Source of the DNA: a virus | Taxonomy: Duplodnaviria > Heunggongvirae > Uroviricota > Caudoviricetes | Reading direction: 5' to 3' (one strand) | Length of the DNA stretch: 40,519 bases | Virus record (IMG/VR): IMGVR_UViG_2872185964_000011 | Shown here: one piece after another, positions 9,157-31,922 of the stretch | How positions within the stretch are numbered: the first letter of the stretch is position 1 | How the letters are laid out: each line of letters starts with the position of its first letter | The notes under the pieces: generated by a model | The model's database searches: none | Seen by the model: only the letters and a program-made list of their open reading frames with translations | What the model was told of the DNA's origin: nothing | Program-made: the position numbers and the translations under genes

Positions 9157-10457
9157 TCAGATGAGGTCTGCGGTTAGCGTATCGTCGGATACGTCGTCGA
9201 AATCATTTACAGGGTTGATATTGAGTGCGGGGCGTGGGTCTGACTCGGGAACGATGGTGGGTTTACCATCAGCTCGTGTTATCAGTGCCTCGACTTTTGA
9301 CCAACGGCGCGGACTGGCCTTTTTGATAAGTGTTTCGGCTTTTGTGGGGCTAATAAGTTTAAAGTCGAATACTTCTTCAGTTTTGTACCTGAACTGGTCC
9401 TTCAGAAGTGCGCGAGCTGCCTCTTCATCACTCCAGGCCCGGTTACCTTGTTTTCCTGTTACCAGTTTAAACCCCGGTACCGGATGTCCGGCATTGAGTT
9501 CATTGTGAACCCGGTCTCGTACTGCCTTTAGCCAGGATTCAATAAAGTCGGCCTGGCTATAGATCTCCGCAAGCTGCTCAATGGTTAACAGAGGTAAACG
9601 TGCGCTGGCATTGGTGATTATTTCGCTGACAGGCTTTGTCAGATCTTCAAAATCGCTGGCCGCTGTTTGTAAATGCTGCATTTTCTGGGCAGTGCAAATA
9701 GCTTTTGCTTTACAGAAGCGGCACTGTTTTTCTCCAGGTATGAAGTTTTCCAGCGGTAGTGTCTCAATGCCTTCGCATTCAGCAATATTGAGAACAAGGA
9801 TCGCACTGGTTGCGGCCTCCTGTGCCCGTTCACCGAACGCCTGGAGCTCTTCCACCGTCAGAGCCCACTCTGAAACGTGGTTAAGCCGCGGCTGGTGGAT
9901 GAACAGGCGCACCGTCTCGAAGTCGTACAGCATGCTGAATTGTTCGAGCGCACCCAGAGCATACAGTTGTAGTTGCTCATTTTGTTCTGCATCAATGCGG
10001 ACGCCTTTGCCATATTTCAGGTCGTGGATTTGTAATTCGCTACCAGCAATGATTATGCCGTCGGCAGTTCCGAAAGATTCTTCCACACCCGTTATATGTG
10101 AGAAATCAACACGTTGTTCAACCAATAGTTCATTATTCTGTGCAAGAGTCCAGACCGTATCAACATACCGGCCAACGGCTTCGACCATTTCATCATCCAC
10201 CTGTGGGCCGGATGTATCATCAGGATTTTCGCGAAGGGGTATGAGCCGAGAAACATAGAAACATTGCATCCGGCGTAGTGTTCCGGGTGGCTTTGCCTGT
10301 TTCGTAGAACTTTTTCAGCAAGCGCGTGCGCTGCAGTGCCCTCGATTGCAAAAGTTGTTTCTTTATCCGGTTGTGTGGCCTCCAGCGCCAGACTTCCTGG
10401 GCAGCGCATCCATCGATGCGCTGATGATGGAGAAAGTTGTGCGTGAACGTCTGGCAT
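9157..10457 (-). CDS. PD-(D/E)XK-type nuclease (DUF2800-like, from memory), reading frame broken near 10270-10330
   Basis: N-part [26 protein letters not shown]...[13 protein letters not shown]; C-part in the -1 frame with [12 protein letters not shown] and a [10 protein letters not shown] cysteine cluster. Confidence 0.6.
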
Positions 10458-11362: not shown

Positions 11363-11508
11363 ACTGTGGTCCTCGCTACAAGGAGAATGAAAGTGATGAT
11401 CAGACCGAGCGCAGTGGCAACGGCCAGACCGGTCATCAAATCGAAGTTTTTACGGCGATAACGGAGAACATCGCGCCCCGTCAGTCGATGGATGTGTTCA
11501 GGTTTCAT
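11359..11508 (-). CDS. small hypothetical protein with C-terminal transmembrane helix
   Basis: 49 aa ([49 protein letters not shown]); AAGGAA upstream; stop overlaps next gene start (ATGA). Confidence 0.3.
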   Translation of the reverse strand: MKPEHIHRLTGRDVLRYRRKNFDLMTGLAVATALGLIITFILLVARTTV

Positions 11509-11565
11509 CGGTTGTATTCCTTTTTTCATATCGGGGAGCGCGCTGTTGCGAGTGCGCTTTCAGAC

Positions 11566-11593
11566 ATAAAAAAGCCCGTCACTTGAGGCGGGC
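11566..11593 (-). terminator. rho-independent terminator candidate after the first leftward early gene
   Basis: minus-strand hairpin GCCCGCC...GACGGGC followed by UUUUUUAU. Confidence 0.45.
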
Positions 11594-11635
11594 AAAGACT
11601 ACACACAGCAATTACATGGAGGATTCAGAGGATTG

Positions 11636-11830
11636 TTATGGGTGAAGGACGACGGTATCCATTCGGTTAAAACAAGTATTGGTCGCAGAACCTGTATGTT
11701 TGTTAACTAGAGTCAGGCTAACGTTATGCTGGTCGCGATCAGTTTTTTGGGTAATCTCCATTATCCGTTTTCCACTGAATTCAATTTTGTCGCCGATAGC
11801 CAGGTCATTAACCAGTTTATATTTAGGCAT
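11636..11830 (-). CDS. hypothetical small early protein
   Basis: 64 aa from ATG at 11830 preceded by AGGAA; first gene of the leftward transcript; not arginine-rich, so not an obvious N-type antiterminator. Confidence 0.45.
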   Translation of the reverse strand: MPKYKLVNDLAIGDKIEFSGKRIMEITQKTDRDQHNVSLTLVNKHTGSATNTCFNRMDTVVLHP

Positions 11831-12116
11831 CTTGTGATTCCTCATTCAGTTCACTTTGGTGGTTCGGCGGCTTCGACTTGTATTAATTAGACAGTGCTTC
11901 GCCGCACCCCAAAGGGAACTTACTGACCTGTATTGCCGACATCCTGTCCCGCCACGGTCCCGACGCATGGTTTAGAGTCGCGCCGTTCGACTTGTGGCTA
12001 AAGATACAATTTCAGTTGTATTGTGTAAACCGCAAATGTGGTATTTTGTGGGGTGTGAATACTACTTTATTGATATTTAAGTGAATTTAATTTGTAAGAC
12101 TTTACAAATGGGGTAA

Positions 12117-12136
12117 GGGAGGCTGTTACGCCTCCC
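12117..12136. terminator. perfect 7-bp stem-loop (GGGAGGC-tgttac-GCCTCCC) 20 nt downstream of the repressor gene
   Basis: read directly; weak U-tract on either strand. Confidence 0.35.
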
Positions 12137-12155
12137 GATATTTACGGTGGGAATA

Positions 12156-12779
12156 CTAACGTTTACGGCGGTAAATACGGTGTTCGATCATTACACCTAT
12201 GATCTGTAAGTTCATATCTGCACTACGAAAAATAGGGTAATCAGGATTTAGGGGGATTAATTCAAAGTCGTCGATGCCGATTCCTAATGGACGGTATTTT
12301 TTAAATGTAGCTTCGTGACCGTCGTTTTTGGCGACAACAAACTCCCCTGGTGCAGGACATAGATCAGGATCGATGATAACAATGTCTCCTTCTTTAAACT
12401 CTGGTTGCATGCTGTCGCCATCAATACGTAATGCGAAGCATGTTTCTGGAATGTCAGAGTCTGCCAAAATATATTCAAATTCCCCTGTCAGATCTGTTAT
12501 GTCTCTTGCTTCTGTAAGCTCTCCTGCCTGAACGTAACTTAATATAGGTATGCGTCTGGTACTTATCTCTGTGAGAGGCATAATATTTTTACCGTTCAGT
12601 AGCCAGTCTGGGCTACATTTCAAGGCCTTAGCCAAATCCAGAAGATTGCGTGGCTTTCTGGTTCGTCCACTTTCGATGGATTCTATGGATTGTTGGCTAA
12701 CCCCTGCAGAATTCGCTACTTCCACTTGAGTCATTCCTAATTCCAAACGACGTGCTTTAAAACGGGCTGCGAGAGACAT
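12156..12779 (-). CDS. CI-like repressor (N-terminal HTH, C-terminal S24 LexA-type autopeptidase)
   Basis: MSLAARFKARRLELGMTQVEVANSAGVSQQSIESIE HTH; GDSMQPEFKEGDIVIID and downstream Lys (ATFKKY) as Ser/Lys dyad; AAGGA RBS; divergent from cro-like gene. Confidence 0.85.
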   Translation of the reverse strand: MSLAARFKARRLELGMTQVEVANSAGVSQQSIESIESGRTRKPRNLLDLAKALKCSPDWLLNGKNIMPLTEISTRRIPILSYVQAGELTEARDITDLTGEFEYILADSDIPETCFALRIDGDSMQPEFKEGDIVIIDPDLCPAPGEFVVAKNDGHEATFKKYRPLGIGIDDFELIPLNPDYPIFRSADMNLQIIGVMIEHRIYRRKR

Positions 12780-12804
12780 GGGATTAGTCCTTCTGGGTTG
12801 TATT

Positions 12805-12822
12805 AATGTGTATACCCACATT
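12805..12822. promoter_or_regulatory. operator candidate: 18-bp palindrome AATGTGTATACCCACATT in the cI-cro intergenic region
   Basis: perfect dyad read directly; a TTGACA hexamer lies 20 bp to the right (12843-12848). Confidence 0.45.
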
Positions 12823-12899
12823 AAAAACAATTTTTGTTGTATTTGACAAACCTCATTTGTTGTTGCTAAATACCACTAAAATTGTATGAGGTGAAAGCA

Positions 12900-15307: not shown

Positions 15308-15465
15308 AGGTTGGTACATTTTAACTAATTGAATTTAAAGGTCAGTACCAACTGTACCAACTGTACCAACCTAATTACTAAGAACCCCATATATATATAT
15401 ATAAGTCGCTTGGGGAAAAGGTTTGAAAAGAGCTGGTACAGGTGGGTACAGGCTGGTACAGGCCG
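15285..15465. repeat. array of eight GTAC-core repeats in two inverted tandem triplets flanking a (TA)7 tract; candidate replication origin iterons or regulator binding sites
   Basis: CTGTACCAAC-type units with GTAC cores at 15345/15354/15363, (TA)7 at 15390-15403, reverse-complement units CTGGTACAGG at 15436/15446/15456 spaced exactly 10 bp; extra copies at 15290 and 15314. Confidence 0.7.
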
Positions 15466-27039: not shown

Positions 27040-28185
27040 ATGGCACAGGGCTTGCCTGTATCAAACGTTGTTAATGTTGATGTGATCATGTCGCCGCGTG
27101 CAGCATCAGGGCGAAATTTTGGTGCATTACTCATTCTCGGCCCGTCCACAATCATTCCGGTAAGTGAGCGCATTCGCCGTTATTCTGCCGCGGAAGATAT
27201 TGGAAAAGATTTTGGCGTGGAATCACCAGAATATAAGGCTGCGCAGGTGTTTTTCTCACAATCACCGAAACCTCAGGAGGTTTTTGTTGGTCGTTGGGTG
27301 AAAACGAAGGGAGACAGCGAACAGGCCACGCCTGAGACGCTGGAGCAGGCTGTGAATGCCATGCTCGATTATACTTCATGGTATGGGCTGGGGATTGCAG
27401 ACGATGAAGATATTCCGGATGCAGACTGGCTGAAAGTGGCTGCGGCGATCGAATCCTCTTCTGTAAGCCGTATTCTGGCGATTACGACAAGCGATGAGAA
27501 ATGCCTGCAGACTGCATCCAGCGATGATTTGGCATCAAAACTGAAAACCGCCGGATATTCACGCAGTTTTATTCAGTATTCATCGGGTAATAAATACGCC
27601 GCGTTATCTGCATTTGGCCGGGCATTCACGGTTAATTTCAATGGCAGTAATACCGCGATTACGCTCAAGTTTAAGCAGGAGCCGGGTGTCGGGTATGAAA
27701 CACTGACAGTCAGCCAGGCATCGGCACTTGATGCAAAAAACTGCAATGTGTTCGTGTACTACCAGAATGATACAGCTATCCTCCAGCAGGGAGTGATGGC
27801 TAACGGCGATTTCTTTGATGAACGCCACGGCCTGGACTGGTTACAGAATTATGTGCAGACCAACCTCTATAACCTGCTTTATACCAGCACCACGAAAGTT
27901 CCCCAGACTGAAGCCGGTATTACCCGACTGTTATCAAATGTTGAAAAATCACTGGATCAGGCCGTTCAGAATGGACTGATTGCTCCGGGCGTATGGAACG
28001 GGGGCGACCTTGGTCAGCTGTCATCAGGTGACACACTGCCCAAAGGTTATTACGTATACGCCCAGCCGCTGAATGAACAGGCACAATCAGAACGTGAAGC
28101 CCGTAAGGCTCCGGTGATTCAGGCTGCAATAAAACTTGCAGGCGCGGTTCATTACGCTGACGTACAGATTAACGTTGTTCGCTAA
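27040..28185 (+). CDS. tail sheath protein candidate (DUF3383-like, from memory)
   Basis: 381 aa followed by tube, chaperone and tape-measure genes. Confidence 0.6.
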
Positions 28186-28195
28186 GGGGAAGTGA

Positions 28196-28636
28196 ATGTC
28201 TACCTATTCTTTTATGGATGTCACTGCGACGCTGACCGGGCCGACCGGTTCGATTGACCTCGGGTACGGTTCTGCAAGTTCTGAAGAGGGGATTGTGGTT
28301 GCGATGGGCGGTCCTAAAAACACCATGACCATCGGTGCTGATGGCGAAGTGATGCACAGTCTCCATGCAGATAAAAGCGGGACGATTACCGTTAACCTTC
28401 TGAAGACATCACCGACAAATAAAAAATTGTCGCTGGCGTATAACGCACAGAGCCAGTCTTCTGCCACATGGGGGAATAACGTTATTGTGATCCGAAACAA
28501 GGTCAGCGGCGACATCATCACGGCACGTAGTGTTGCGTTCCAGAAACAACCGGATAATGCCAACGCTAAAACCGGTAATACGATGCCGTGGGTGTTTGAC
28601 TGCGGCAAGATTGACCAGGTTCTCGGGGAGTTTTAA
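28196..28636 (+). CDS. tail tube protein candidate
   Basis: 146 aa between sheath and chaperone genes. Confidence 0.55.
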   Translation: MSTYSFMDVTATLTGPTGSIDLGYGSASSEEGIVVAMGGPKNTMTIGADGEVMHSLHADKSGTITVNLLKTSPTNKKLSLAYNAQSQSSATWGNNVIVIRNKVSGDIITARSVAFQKQPDNANAKTGNTMPWVFDCGKIDQVLGEF

Positions 28637-28639
28637 TAC

Positions 28640-29092
28640 ATGGAATTCGAAATCAAAGGCGTGAAATATCGCGCGGCAAAACTCAGCGTTTTTGACCAGC
28701 TGAAAGTGACCCGCAAACTTCTGCCGGTGCTGGCAGGAATGATGTCAGATTTCGGGAGCATTCGCTCCCGTTTGCCTGCTGACGGCAAAATCGACACCGT
28801 GAAATTCGAGCAGTTAAAACCGGTGTTTGAAACCATGCTCCCGCGTATCGCTGAGGAATTGTCTTCCCTGACCGAAGATGACACCGATGCGATTATTCAT
28901 CCCTGTCTTGCGGTGGTATCGCGGCGTCATATGGACGGATGGGTGCCGGTATTTACCCAGGGCGAACTGATGTTTGATGATATTGACTTGCTGGTCATGC
29001 TGCAGCTGGTGGCGCGGGTGGTCGCCAATTCGCTGGGAAATTTTTTGCCTACATCCCTTACCAGCACGACGCAGAGCCTGCAACAGGGCTGA
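28640..29092 (+). CDS. tail assembly chaperone (short form); a -1 shift near 29041-29047 would extend it to 29280
   Basis: position between tube and tape measure; slippery heptamers near the 3' end; -1 frame open to a TGA at 29278-29280 overlapping the tape-measure start. Confidence 0.6.
   Translation: MEFEIKGVKYRAAKLSVFDQLKVTRKLLPVLAGMMSDFGSIRSRLPADGKIDTVKFEQLKPVFETMLPRIAEELSSLTEDDTDAIIHPCLAVVSRRHMDGWVPVFTQGELMFDDIDLLVMLQLVARVVANSLGNFLPTSLTSTTQSLQQG
29035..29047 (+). other. candidate programmed -1 ribosomal frameshift site: tandem heptamers G GGA AAT and T TTT TTG in the chaperone zero frame
   Basis: read directly; both fit the X XXY YYZ pattern in frame. Confidence 0.5.
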
Positions 29093-29269
29093 CGTTTAAC
29101 AGCCTGCCGGACGGGCTGTCCTACCTTCTCAATCCGGTTGACGCCGGGTTAATTCCTTATACAGCACTTAAAGATGGCTCTGTCGATTTGTACGATATTG
29201 CTCTCTTGAATGACCATCTGGCGGTAAAAGCGGATAACCAGCGGCGCATTGAGAAATGGAGAGAGGATA

Positions 29270-31257
29270 ATGAACGCTGAAACTATTAAAGATTTCCTCG
29301 TCTCGCTTGGCTTCAGTGTGGATGATGCTGGAGCAAAAAAATTCGGTTCTGTCCTCGCCGGTACAACTGCAAATGTCATCAAAATGGGGTTGGCCGTTGA
29401 AGGAGCTGCACTGTCCGTGGTGGCCTTTACGGCTAAGATTGCCTCCGGCCTGGATAATCTTTACTGGGCGTCACAGCGCACTGGCGCGACAGTCCAGGGA
29501 ATTCAGTCTATTGGATATGCGGTTTCGCGGGTTGGCGGCAGCGTGGACGCTGCGCGATCTTCTCTGGAAAGCCTCTCCCGGTTTATTCGTAACAATCCCG
29601 GTGCAGAGGGATTTCTGAATCGCCTGGGGTACAGACACGGGATGCCAGCGGTAACATGCGTGACATGGCCGCTATTTTTACAGGTGTAGGCCAGAAGCTC
29701 AGCGGCATGCCGTATTACCGGGCTAACCAGTATGCGCAGATGCTGGGCATTGACGAAAATACCCTTATGGCGATGCGCCGGGGTGTGGGTGGTTTCTCCG
29801 GGCAGTACAGCGCAATGGCGAAAGCTATCGGCTTCAATGCTGAAGAGGCGGCCAGAAGCTCCAACAAATTTATGACCTCCCTGCGTGAGTTTAGCGCGAT
29901 GGCAGGCATGGCCCGTGACAAAATCGGCTCTAATCTTGCGGGTGGGCTTGCGGGTTCGCTGGACACCCTGCGCCGCCATATCCTGGACAACTTCCCGCGT
30001 ATCGAGCAGACCCTGACGAAAGCCATAAAAGGCATTCTGGCGCTCGGGGATATTATCGGGCGGCTGTTCTTCAGACTGATTGAAGGAACATCAAGCCTCA
30101 TCACCTGGTGGCAATCGCTGGATAAGCAAACGCGGGAGTTGATCTCGCTGTTTGGCGCACTGACGATTGCGCTGCGCATTCTGAACAGTACGTTCTGGAT
30201 GTCGCCGATTGGCCTCATTACCGCGCTGGCGGCGGGGATTGCCCTCCTGTGGGAGGACTATCAGACCTGGAAGGAAGGCGGCGACAGCCTGATTGACTGG
30301 GGCAAGTGGAAACCGGAGGTTGATGCCGCGCTGAAGATGGTTCGTGACCTTAAAACGACCGTTAACGACCTGGTGAAAGCGCTGGCGAAACTGCTCAATA
30401 TTGACCCCAAATCATGGTCCCTGAAGTGGGATTTCAGCAACTTCATCGACCAGATGGGCGAATTCAGCAAAATGCTGAACATGATCGCCGACCTGCTCAA
30501 CGCTATCAAAGATGGCCGCTGGGTTGATGCCGTCAGCATCGGCAAACAGATACTTAATCAGGGCAGCGAAAATCCGTCAGCGATGCCGATAGTTACAGAC
30601 AGCGCTAACAGTACTGCCGACTGGATTAAAGAGCACTGGGGATTCGATCCCCGCAGCGTGGGCCGGACGGTACGCGGCTGGTTTGGTGATGATGAGCCGG
30701 AACAATATGCACAGGCTACGAAACGAGGAGAACGGAATAACAATCCGGGAAACCTTAATTTTGCTGGTCAGGCAGGGGCTTCTCTTGAACGCCCGGGCGG
30801 GCGATTTGCCAGATTTGAAACTGCTTTTGATGGATTACGGGCTCTTGCTCGTCAGTTAATGCTGTACGCCGGACGGGGAATAAACAGTGTGGAGAAAATT
30901 ATCTCTACCTGGGCACCTGCGTCTGATAATAACAACACAACTGCGTATATCAGGGCTGTATCGCAACGACTGGGAGTGGATCCCCGGGCTGCCCTGAATA
31001 TGAGCGAGCCGCAAACCATGTCAGCATTGATGAGCAGCATTATCCAGCATGAAAATGGAAGAAATATCTATTCCCGAGAGCTGATTAATAAGGCTGCCGT
31101 GGCGGGAATTAGTGGCAAAATGACAGAGGTTAATCAGCAAAATACTTACCACATTTACGGTGGCGGAGATCCGCACGCTGTCGGTAATGAGGTTGCACGT
31201 CGGCAACAGTCTGCAAATGCTCAGGTCATGCGAAGTAATCAGGTGAGGGTGGGTTAG
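29270..31257 (+). CDS. tail tape measure protein, frame broken at G-run 29626-29629
   Basis: adding one G gives ...FLNRLGVQTRDASGNMRDMAAIFTG...; long helical protein. Confidence 0.75.
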
Positions 31258-31922
31258 TGGATATTCTCTCTACACTTTTTCATCAGCAGAGCAGAAAAAT
31301 AGGAATGATTGTTCCCAGTGTTGTTATTTCAGAGAAGCATACAGATATGCTTGAAATAACAGAGCATCCGGTAGAGGTCGGGGCTGCTGTCGCTGATCAT
31401 GCCTATAAAAAACCGTCAGAAGTGGTGATGGAGGTTGGTTTCGCCGGTGGCGGCGCATTGCTGGATTTTGCCAGTAATCTGACAGCTACCAGCCTGCTCG
31501 GCCTGAGTCCTCAGCAGACGTATCAGGAGCTACTGGATCTGCAGGAAAGCCGTATCCCCTTCGATGTGGTAACCGGTAAACGACTGTACAGCAACATGTT
31601 GATCCGGGCGCTGGAAGTGACGACGGACAAGACAACCGAAAACGTCCTGTCCGCCGTTCTTACCCTGAGGGAGGTCCTTATCTCCCGGACACAGCAGATT
31701 ACCGTCGCGGATAAAACCAATATGAAGGAAGGGGCCAGCACCTCGGCGGTACAGAACAGCGGCAACAAAACCACAAAACCTCCAGATACTTCACTGCTGA
31801 AAAGCATCACGGGTAACGTGGCGTCATTACTGGGGGCGGCTAATGACAATTCAGGAAATTCCGCTGACAGCGGACAACCAGCAGTTCAGCATCGTCCTGG
31901 GTGGTGTCACCTGGCGGATTAG
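31257..31922 (+). CDS. hypothetical tail/baseplate protein; true stop probably at 31841-31843
   Basis: if one G is missing in the G-run 31832-31836 the protein ends ...SLLGGG at a TAA overlapping the next ATG. Confidence 0.45.
   Translation: MDILSTLFHQQSRKIGMIVPSVVISEKHTDMLEITEHPVEVGAAVADHAYKKPSEVVMEVGFAGGGALLDFASNLTATSLLGLSPQQTYQELLDLQESRIPFDVVTGKRLYSNMLIRALEVTTDKTTENVLSAVLTLREVLISRTQQITVADKTNMKEGASTSAVQNSGNKTTKPPDTSLLKSITGNVASLLGAANDNSGNSADSGQPAVQHRPGWCHLAD

Follow-up and report, generated by a model that had tools for sequence, protein, structure and literature searches.

A conserved U-run slippery tract predicted to fuse a DUF6889 extension to a phage tail assembly chaperone by -1 frameshifting

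Short and long forms of tail assembly chaperones have been described for several phages and include G and GT of lambda (Levin et al. 1993; Xu et al. 2004, 2013, 2014, as referred to in PMC5009743), E and E+E' of P2, where the shift takes place on TTTTTTG and without a hairpin (Christie et al. 2002, as cited in PMC3091744), and TAC-N and TAC-NC of the Vandenendeviridae (Pakpunavirus, KPP10-like) and Andersonviridae, which are linked by a -1 frameshift at an invariant GTTTTT (PMC12846349). Here, we report on a stretch of 40,519 nucleotides from a member of the Caudoviricetes (IMG/VR virus record IMGVR_UViG_2872185964_000011; the whole stretch is referred to as the window), in which, to judge from comparison with its relatives, the chaperone gene very probably undergoes programmed -1 ribosomal frameshifting that yields a 150-aa and a 213-aa form of the protein. 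The site is an ordinary, well-known kind of signal, which is found here in an E. coli prophage.

As far as the lambda system is covered by PMC5009743, our locus resembles it in that the gene is placed between those for the major tail (or tube) protein and the tape measure and in that the first of its slippery heptamers, G GGA AAT, is similar to G GGA AAG of lambda. In contrast to lambda, the phage of the window has a contractile tail, AAU takes the place of AAG as A-site codon, the conserved core is a U-run and there is no detectable sequence relationship, Phage_TAC_15 being the sole Pfam match. With P2, following the account in PMC3091744, the window shares an identical T TTT TTG, in register with the zero frame and towards the end of the chaperone ORF, a myovirus tail operon, a site that has no downstream hairpin and an extension that stops at or close to the next tail gene. 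It differs from P2 by two extra overlapping heptamers 5' of TTTTTTG and, possibly, by a Shine-Dalgarno (SD)-like element, and homology to P2 gpE was not found in a Pfam scan at E<=0.01, which gave Phage_TAC_15 only. As for TAC-N/TAC-NC, the tail-module families appear to be the same (here, a KPP10_Orf10 tube and a DUF3383 sheath), and the likeness extends to a poly-T motif near the 3' end of TAC-N, a -1 frame free of stops over more than 200 bp as far as the tape measure and a downstream ORF routinely mis-annotated as hypothetical protein (PMC12846349). These are lytic phages of Pseudomonas and others, however, and the base before their T-run is G, whereas it is A (AAT) in the window. A true homologue is present in Klebsiella phage Mulock (GenBank MN098327; 72.6% nucleotide identity over the locus), which has an identical GGGAAATTTTTTG and the same layout, and where CPT_Mulock_014/015 ('tape measure chaperone' and 'frameshift product') are given as a joined CDS of 205 aa, just as predicted. 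Mulock differs in that it provides annotation only, and its genome announcement does not mention the frameshift.

In the window, the order of genes is sheath, tube, chaperone, -1 ORF and tape measure (Table 1). The chaperone is assigned to Phage_TAC_15 (Pfam PF21822, E=1e-30, 107.3 bits against a cut-off of 22) and to PHROG 1688 'tail assembly chaperone' (phrog_1688, E=6.9e-65), while an NCBIfam scan of the chaperone and its -1 part returned no matches. As to its fold, a PDB sequence search retrieved no relative and Foldseek against the PDB no hit at E<5, the AF2 model being one of low confidence (pLDDT 64.7).

Table 1. Positions of the tail genes and of the candidate frameshift elements in the window
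Feature	Position	Strand	Basis or remark
Tail sheath gene	27040..28185	+	Pfam PF11863 DUF3383, E=1.3e-100; counterpart in phage SEN34 annotated 'tail sheath'
Tail tube gene	28196..28636	+	Directly 5' of chaperone gene; Pfam PF11681 KPP10_Orf10, E=8.8e-61
Tail assembly chaperone, short zero-frame form, 150 aa	28640..29092	+	ORF; stop TGA 29090-29092
Possible SD-like stimulator GGGUGGUC	29016..29023	+	Putative; 11, 14 and 17 nt 5' of heptamers 1, 2 and 3
Slippery tract G GGA AAT TTT TTG	29035..29047	+	Three overlapping in-frame heptamers
-1 C-terminal extension of predicted long form	29041..29280	+	Long form = 28640..29041 joined to 29041..29280, 213 aa
DUF6889 domain, -1 frame; putative T-like domain of long form	29155..29271	+	Pfam PF21829; phrog_4364 E=1.9e-23
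Tape-measure gene, lytic transglycosylase domain	29270..31257	+	ATG 29270 overlaps end of long form

Across the site, the zero-frame codons read TCG CTG GGA AAT TTT TTG CCT (29030-29050). The original prediction had proposed two tandem heptamers, G GGA AAT (29035-29041) and T TTT TTG (29041-29047), and both are present, in X XXY YYZ register with respect to the ORF at 28640-29092; the count of two is incomplete, though, since a third in-frame heptamer, A AAT TTT (29038-29044), lies between them. No in-frame X XXY YYZ heptamers besides these three occur in the chaperone gene, and theirs is the sole run of three in a row among the 14,486 codons of the window's long ORFs, in which heptamers are found at a rate of 0.0034 per codon. 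A second in-frame double heptamer, TTTAAACCCC near 9470 on the plus strand, was judged spurious because it sits in a stop-to-stop ORF that is antisense to the region which, by coordinate mapping, corresponds to a minus-strand DUF2800 gene in one relative (L010). According to E. coli reporter data, R_RR.U_UU.Y heptamers (e.g. A_AA.U_UU.U) are in the shift-prone class, and G_GG.A_AA.U and U_UU.U_UU.G, with their heterogeneous A-site codons, belong to a weaker class in E. coli (PMC4066793).

For a set of relatives that is unbiased with respect to the motif, we probed with the N-terminal 129 aa only, motif excluded, and obtained 80 IMG/VR loci plus 55 from GTDB species genomes, of which 134 were usable. 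A -1 shift is required in every one of them (134/134) and not one encodes the long form in a single frame (0/134); the identical 13-mer is kept in 115/134, and the remainder retain the U-run. Nine phages with 65-96% nucleotide identity, including ones of Yersinia, Salmonella, Klebsiella, Citrobacter and Hafnia as well as one recorded as Elizabethkingia phage, likewise share the 13-mer, letter for letter, and the two-frame layout with the window. Codon usage, counted over 56 non-redundant genes, is uniform at the site: Phe135 is TTT in 56/56 (background 46%), Leu136 is TTG in 49/49 (background 12%), Asn134 is AAT in 46/46 (background 40%) and Gly133 is GGA in 45/55 (background 11%), with T TTT TTN found in 54 and X XXT TTT in 46 of the 56 genes. 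Conservation extends to GGA AAT or CCT on the 5' side of the U-run, and the tract always stands in the zero-frame X XXY YYZ register. Diverged relatives thus preserve the two-frame layout and the slippery site to a greater extent than the protein sequence would demand, with synonymous sites conserved across genera.

As regards the part of the tract on which ribosomes would shift, we rejected G GGA AAT as the main site, since it is lost in 16/56 of the non-redundant relatives that nonetheless keep the two-frame layout. Judging from the comparisons, the pivot is probably the U-run around codon Phe135 instead. Four lineages have a stop of the -1 frame directly before the U-run, so that the shift must take place on the U-run itself. 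We propose the following course of events. Most ribosomes would translate 28640-29092 and release the 150-aa chaperone, while a minority would slip one base back on G GGA AAU UUU UUG (29035-29047) and continue in the -1 frame to the TGA at 29278-29280, the long product of 213 aa being made up of the N-terminal part of the chaperone and a 79-residue extension with DUF6889. The pivot codon UUU135 would be in the A site on A AAU UUU or in the P site on U UUU UUG. A shift on heptamer 1 or 2 would result in ...SLGNFFAY..., one on heptamer 3 in ...SLGNFLAY..., and the junction predicted for heptamer 1 or 2 is ...VVA(N/D)SLGNFFAY(I/T)PYQHDAEPATGLTFNSLPDGLSYLLNPVDAGLIPYTALK.

The product expected from heptamers 1 or 2 (...GNFFAY...) would also be made by transcriptional slippage, whereby RNA polymerase adds one U on the T6/A3 tract and a fraction of the mRNAs carries the long form in a single frame. 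The site is a homopolymer run and, with products being the same, the two mechanisms are inseparable by sequence, but we regard the polymerase as an improbable source of the shift. Efficient slippage by E. coli RNA polymerase takes runs of approximately nine or more A/T, for which T6 is short, and relatives from Bryobacteraceae have T4 only (C CCT TTT ATG) yet maintain the two-frame layout. Moreover, what is conserved is frame-specific, namely the X XXY YYZ register with GGA AAT or CCT 5' of the run, which fits the prediction of tRNA re-pairing and not that of polymerase slippage.

Open from 28987 onwards, the -1 frame translates into ...AYIPYQHDAEPATGL...WREDNER, with 77 codons beyond the T-run and with the tape-measure ATG (29270) overlapping the -1 stop by 11 nt. 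Hence the open -1 frame that had been put forward, about 77 codons long and ending at 29278-29280 over the tape-measure start, can be read directly in the sequence. By itself, an open -1 frame is weak evidence. A null test that asked for a -1 frame open for at least 61 codons past the stop is passed by 32% of the window's long ORFs, because the next gene is often in the -1 frame, and was dropped as uninformative. That the open frame is more than chance here follows from its match to DUF6889 (PF21829; 73.3 bits against a cut-off of 23.9, E=1.3e-20, residues 41-79 in the translation of 29035-29280) together with a layout that is conserved in relatives. Nearly all relatives have a post-site length of 77 codons, and right after the site their amino-acid identity is 0.68 in the -1 frame versus 0.41 in the zero frame.

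Current databases see the extension differently. RefSeq holds a separate 'DUF6889 family protein' (L010, 20477-20641) and PGAP annotates likewise, Hafnia phage yong1, Klebsiella phage GZ7 and ST11-VIM1phi8.3 have separate small CDSs, and PHROG 4364 is a stand-alone family, all of which would suit an independent small gene that has a start codon to itself and whose product would be a free ~55-aa protein not fused to the chaperone. We find this highly improbable. The first ATG, GTG or TTG available in the window is a TTG at codon 47 of 77 and thus inside the DUF6889 domain, and no ORF of at least 40 aa is listed there in the -1 frame. In relatives, the first such codon of the extension varies in position between codons 15 and 59 or does not exist, and there is neither a conserved start codon nor a conserved SD. 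The -1 frame, on the other hand, is conserved from the tract on (ARTPYQRD..., at the identity of 0.68), which is upstream of any start, and in several lineages it opens exactly at the tract. With the position of the gene, a -1 ORF that is start-less but contains a conserved domain and a synonymously conserved tract within the overlap, the match to the conserved short/long arrangement of chaperones that the original prediction had drawn is well founded.

Sequence quality deserves attention, as the original prediction had itself cautioned that a base missing from the T6 run would leave the same signature. In that case, the true gene would have T7 and encode 213 aa in a single frame and the window would have lost one T, be it by sequencing or assembly error or in a pseudogene. 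Compared to its nearest relative, the window is indeed one base short at 14 homopolymers, among them the one at 29626, where the lack of a G splits the tape-measure gene, which is a single ORF (662-669 aa) in relatives. What is more, a few public sequences have T7 and a single-frame 213-aa protein, e.g. L011 and E. coli ISC7 (CDL28562.1), the latter being identical to the long form predicted for the window. However, all 14 single-base deletions relative to the 99.93%-identical E. coli prophage are in G/C runs, none of them within 28640-29300, and the prophage has T6, too. On this comparison, the T6 run is genuine and no sequencing error, and the same alignment shows that the window's broken ORFs, including the tape-measure gene, originate from G/C-homopolymer deletions. 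The length of the T-run, which was to be checked in relatives, is kept at T6 down to about 50% protein identity and, along with the prophage, this rules out a missing base. The counter-evidence named at the outset, relatives that encode the long form in one continuous frame with an extra base at this place, does exist to the letter in the few T7 sequences, but these belong to a 'fusion' cluster of 16 members with mixed indels (T7, T4, T5 plus a second indel, an upstream indel), while the opposite T5-like variant forms a cluster of its own (P0002, 24 members) and T6 clusters have thousands of members. Set against them are the unbiased relatives, none of which is single-frame and all of which (134/134), like all nine phage genomes, need the shift; in addition, chaperone and DUF6889 ORF are annotated as separate genes in 40/40 E. 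coli complete genomes among the matches listed. To our minds, the likelihood of an error or a pseudogene is therefore negligible.

A downstream RNA structure, for which the original prediction had advised to look, was not found: the 70 nt 3' of the site, folded in 56 relatives, have a mean z of -0.14 with no conserved structure, RNAalifold on 33 sequences gave 2 pairs at -0.36 kcal/mol and the window's own downstream fold has a z of 0.01. In the proposed mechanism, RNA structure downstream would have no role to play. The E. coli dnaX and IS911-type -1 frameshifts have an upstream Shine-Dalgarno-like stimulator. Similar to these, the window has the anti-SD-complementary GGGUGGUC 11-14 nt 5' of heptamers 1 and 2; it differs from them by having no downstream stem-loop and by an SD-like signal that is statistically suggestive in one clade only. 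At -12.7 kcal/mol, GGGUGGUC forms the best anti-SD duplex in the whole chaperone gene, a duplex energy equalled by ~2.5% of synonymous resamples, and there is a codon bias for CGG-GTG, Arg126 being CGG in 36/50 genes versus 26/270 Arg codons elsewhere. In the synonymous-resampling test, only 27 of 56 genes are significant at 0.05, for the most part related 'VARVVA' sequences that share ancestry. A family-wide SD-like stimulator was downgraded after this control, and the data are suggestive of such an element in the window's clade only, where GGGUGGUC may boost slippage.

A more elaborate scenario may be envisaged in which the three heptamers that share UUU135 and the SD-like element act additively as a composite, tunable cassette that sets the long:short ratio, and in which lineages without the 5' heptamers compensate for them. 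We consider this possible, albeit doubtful. Five relatives (L113, L131, L143, L144, L145) have U UUU UUU/C in place of the 5' heptamers, and GGAGGA is located 12 nt upstream in a lineage with T TTT TTG alone, this canonical sequence being found at the same distance in L135-L137. If such a cassette operated, U UUU UUU/C may be the more slippery sequence and GGAGGA may be the compensation for lost 5' heptamers.

By analogy to lambda G/GT, coating of the tape-measure protein would fall to the N-terminal part shared by both forms and recruitment of the tube protein to the extension. A long:short ratio that is low and fixed would thereby drive assembly of the tail tube, with neither form staying in the virion. 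In the literature searched, we found no paper that mentions 'DUF6889' and no protein-level report of two products for the Phage_TAC_15/DUF6889 family. Our analysis is chiefly of use for annotation. Many phage records, as well as 333 of 5,426 complete E. coli genomes, list the -1 extension as a protein of its own under names such as 'DUF6889 family protein', 'hypothetical protein' or even 'NTP pyrophosphohydrolase'. Rather than being kept apart, the extension should be joined to the chaperone as its frameshift product (213 aa in the window), and the two-frame layout of the chaperone, which is biological, is not to be 'corrected'. Beyond this, the locus adds one more well-conserved natural U-run slippery site that has no RNA structure. 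Should the composite cassette prove true, the relatives would represent a natural series for how tandem slippery sites and SD spacing set efficiency, and DUF6889 (phrog_4364) would be resolved as a tube-recruiting chaperone domain.

The best-supported explanation for the layout at the 3' end of the gene for the tail assembly chaperone is a programmed -1 ribosomal frameshift, which would yield a 150-aa chaperone together with a 213-aa chaperone that carries a DUF6889 extension. The zero-frame codons around the site read ...TCG CTG GGA AAT TTT TTG CCT ACA... (150-aa ORF), and both heptamers named in the original prediction, G GGA AAT and T TTT TTG (heptamers 1 and 3), indeed lie in X XXY YYZ register; a third in-frame heptamer, A AAT TTT (heptamer 2), sits between them and had been missed. 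There are no other in-frame heptamers in the gene, and no second run of three turns up in the window's long ORFs (14,486 codons). As predicted, the -1 frame, open from 28987, continues for 77 codons past the T-run with the translation originally quoted; because of the positions of its stop and of the tape-measure ATG, it exactly fills the 177-nt 'gap' between chaperone and tape measure. Pfam and PHROGs assignments are concordant for the chaperone.

Tail module features around the slippery tract (window coordinates)
Feature	Position	Assignment or remark
Sheath protein	27040-28185	Pfam DUF3383, E=1e-100
Tube protein	28196-28636	Pfam KPP10_Orf10, E=9e-61
Tail assembly chaperone (zero frame)	28640-29092	Pfam Phage_TAC_15, E=1e-30; phrog_1688 'tail assembly chaperone'
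Putative upstream anti-SD-complementary element	29016-29023	GGGUGGUC
Heptamer 1	29035-29041	G GGA AAT
Heptamer 2	29038-29044	A AAT TTT
Heptamer 3	29041-29047	T TTT TTG
Zero-frame stop of chaperone ORF	29090-29092	TGA
-1 extension	translation of 29035-29280	Pfam DUF6889, E=1.3e-20; phrog_4364 'unknown function'
-1-frame stop	29278-29280	TGA
Tape-measure start (zero frame)	29270	ATG
Tape-measure gene	29270-31257	two ORFs in the window, 29249-29689 and 29656-31257
Dit-like protein	31257-31922	Pfam

The window is a prophage; over 8646-40189 it matches a prophage in E. coli DETEC-P1056 at 99.93% identity, and the module is present in 333 of the 5,426 complete genomes of E. coli. In the closest relative (L010) a portal-like DUF1073 gene (11373-12839) contains an internal stop and is marked as a pseudogene; L010 may itself be a defective prophage. 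A sequencing error, slippage of the RNA polymerase on T6 and a separate start for the -1 ORF are, even taken together, very unlikely rivals to a programmed shift. The caveat that a base might be missing from the T6 run fails, as all 14 single-base deletions relative to the near-identical prophage (NZ_CP116169; at 10236, 13571, 17785, 18170, 21714, 22147, 24804, 25978, 29626, 31832, 32698, 34499, 36119 and 37709) are in G/C runs and none lies within 28640-29300. T-run length, which it had been proposed to check in relatives, is T6 in this prophage too, so that an error here is ruled out. With one AT dinucleotide indel besides (an extra AT in the window's (AT)n run, 15389-15390), the window's indels have a homopolymer-type error profile and probably break several ORFs. 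The tape-measure gene is split because of a missing G at 29626 in CTGGGGGTAC, an artefact that we reject as a second frameshift site; in relatives it is one ORF of 662-669 aa annotated 'lytic transglycosylase'.

Relatives encoding the long form in one continuous frame by means of an extra base, the case set against the original prediction, were found in part. Searching the predicted 213-aa protein against 5.8 billion proteins gave 680 hits, and the best 120 include one such cluster (P0001, 16 members) that unites the two Pfam domains in a single chain, but its indels are heterogeneous and amount to no maintained single-frame version. The DNA belonging to P0001 (L011) carries T7, and the long form predicted for the window is matched exactly by one member, E. 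coli ISC7 CDL28562.1. The cluster's junctions mix T7-type (GNFFAY) and T4-type (GNFAY) with T5 offset by another indel (GNFCLHPYQ, GNFCLPPYQ) and with an indel further upstream (MLQTGGAGGRRFAGKFFAY). A further T5-like cluster (P0002, 24 members) ends in ...GNFCLHPLPARRRACNRADV, and clusters of the 150-aa form among the matches listed have 1,014, 649, 224 members and more. The fusions show the pattern of homopolymer errors or mutations that arise sporadically.

Nine phage genomes at 65-96% nucleotide identity (Escherichia vB_EcoM-689R2, Yersinia YP3, Salmonella SEN34, Klebsiella Mulock, GZ7 and ST11-VIM1phi8.3, Citrobacter Omnitron, Hafnia yong1 and 'Elizabethkingia' EKP1) all have GGGAAATTTTTTG and the same two-frame layout, their -1 frame running 61-63 codons beyond the zero-frame stop. 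An unbiased search, its probe limited to the N-terminal 129 residues and so free of the motif, retrieved 80 loci from IMG/VR and 55 from GTDB species genomes (29-100% protein identity). Of these, 134 were usable: not one has the long form in a single frame, the 13-mer is exact in 115, and 19 are variants. Enterobacterial-type copies of the tail module with an identical tract occur in two records labelled with Flavobacteriia hosts, Chryseobacterium sp. 18061 and Elizabethkingia phage EKP1 (70% and 51% protein identity), which suggests contamination or mislabelling. Decayed copies, probably degenerate prophages or assembly errors, are found in Apirhabdus apintestini (chaperone ORF cut to 47 aa) and in Enterobacter sp. 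R1 and locus L044 (-1 extension shortened to 37 and 24 codons past the site).

Codon usage was compared in 56 chaperone genes filtered to <95% nucleotide identity. Phe135 is TTT in all 56, as against 46% of Phe codons elsewhere and only 36% at the invariant Phe112; Leu136 is TTG in 49/49 genes with Leu there (background 11.7%), while other Leu columns use 4-6 different codons. Likewise, Asn134 is AAT in 46/46 genes (background 40%) and Gly133 is GGA in 45/55 (background 11%). T TTT TTN is kept in 54 of the 56 genes, X XXT TTT in 46 and G GGA AAT in 40. Among the variants, CTA/CTC/CTT GGA AAT TTT TTG loses heptamer 1 only; GGC GGT/AGT TTT TTG and GGT GAT TTT TTG retain T TTT TTG alone; GGT AAT/AGT TTT TTT, GAT TTT TTT and GGT TTT TTT contain T TTT TTT; the heptamer of C CCT TTT ATG, found at one Bryobacteraceae locus, is in heptamer 2 register, and the sister locus has G CCT TTT ATG, with the U_UUU tetramer only. 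Four loci (L113, L131, L134, L136) have a -1-frame stop directly 5' of the U-run, so in them the shift must be on the run; together with the motif totals, this makes the U UUU of codon 135 the universally conserved element, a codon that occupies the A site in heptamer 2 and the P site in heptamer 3. The long products differ at residue 136 only (Phe if heptamer 1 or 2 shifts, Leu if heptamer 3). In E. coli reporters a heptamer shifts better if its A-site codon is homogeneous (UUY, AAR) rather than heterogeneous, and R_RR.U_UU.Y heptamers are among the shift-prone exceptions (PMC4066793), a ranking that favours A AAU UUU, the heptamer absent from the original prediction, in the E. coli lineage.

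Rather than a gene of its own, the -1 ORF is a chaperone extension. It spans 77 codons past the site in almost all relatives (range 74-82, two decayed copies excepted), and the codon at which an ATG/GTG/TTG first appears varies from 15 to 59, some relatives having none; in the window the earliest possible start is a TTG at codon 47, within the DUF6889 domain (29155-29271). Directly past the site mean pairwise identity is 0.68 in the -1 frame (ARTPYQRD...) versus 0.41 in the zero frame. PGAP/RefSeq nevertheless annotates a separate 'DUF6889 family protein' (L010 20477-20641), a separate gene being called likewise in each of the 40 complete E. coli genomes listed (of the 333 with the module), and several phage records call it 'hypothetical protein' or, in some Klebsiella prophage records, 'NTP pyrophosphohydrolase'. 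Pfam DUF6889, phrog_4364 and the RefSeq family are all this -1 frame extension.

The downstream RNA structure proposed as a check was not found: MFE z-scores of the 70 nt past the site average -0.14 (56 sequences), RNAalifold on 33 diverse sequences gave only 2 invariant pairs and -0.36 kcal/mol, and the window's own 100 nt fold with z=0.01. The site of phage P2 likewise has no hairpin (PMC3091744). On the upstream side, most sequences have the entire gene's strongest anti-SD-complementary 10-mer ending 16 nt short of T TTT TTG, which puts it 11 and 14 nt 5' of heptamers 1 and 2 (11-17 nt before the tract in the window), other examples being GAGUGAUC, GGGUGAUC and AGGUGAUU. The window's element, the top anti-Shine-Dalgarno match of its chaperone gene, comprises a rare Arg CGG and GTG GTC; Arg126 is CGG in 36/50 genes versus 26/270 Arg codons elsewhere, and Val127 is GTG in 87% versus 45%. 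For the window's clade, the only one where the match is significant, about 2% of synonymous resamples attain the observed duplex energy; since its sequences share ancestry and several other clades give 20-75%, a putative SD-like stimulator upstream is suggestive only. Three Erwinia loci (L135-L137) and one of Kalamiella (L124) have lost heptamers 1 and 2 (GGC AGT, GGC GGT or GGT GAT before TTT TTG); the Erwinia loci, with heptamer 3 only, have GTG GAG GAT (GGAGGA) 12 nt 5' of T TTT TTG, which may be a compensatory dnaX-like SD stimulator.

In kind the window's site is already known: it is the classic, conserved frameshift of tail chaperones (Xu et al. 2004). Phage P2 has the same slippery sequence type, TTTTTTG being its native site (PMC3091744). 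KPP10-like phages, whose tube and sheath families seem to be those of the window's tail module, were recently described to have a conserved poly-T (GTTTTT) -1 frameshift (PMC12846349), and the Mulock homologue, whose tract is identical, has carried a frameshift annotation in GenBank since 2019, alone among the records in its joined 'tape measure chaperone frameshift product' (205 aa, the predicted length). Our additions are modest: the third heptamer, codon 135 as pivot, a possible compensatory pattern among lineages, and recognition of DUF6889/phrog_4364 as a frameshift extension. By analogy with lambda G/GT (PMC5009743), the common part of both forms would bind the tape-measure protein and the DUF6889 extension the tube protein, with the two forms presumably made at a fixed low ratio and absent from virions.
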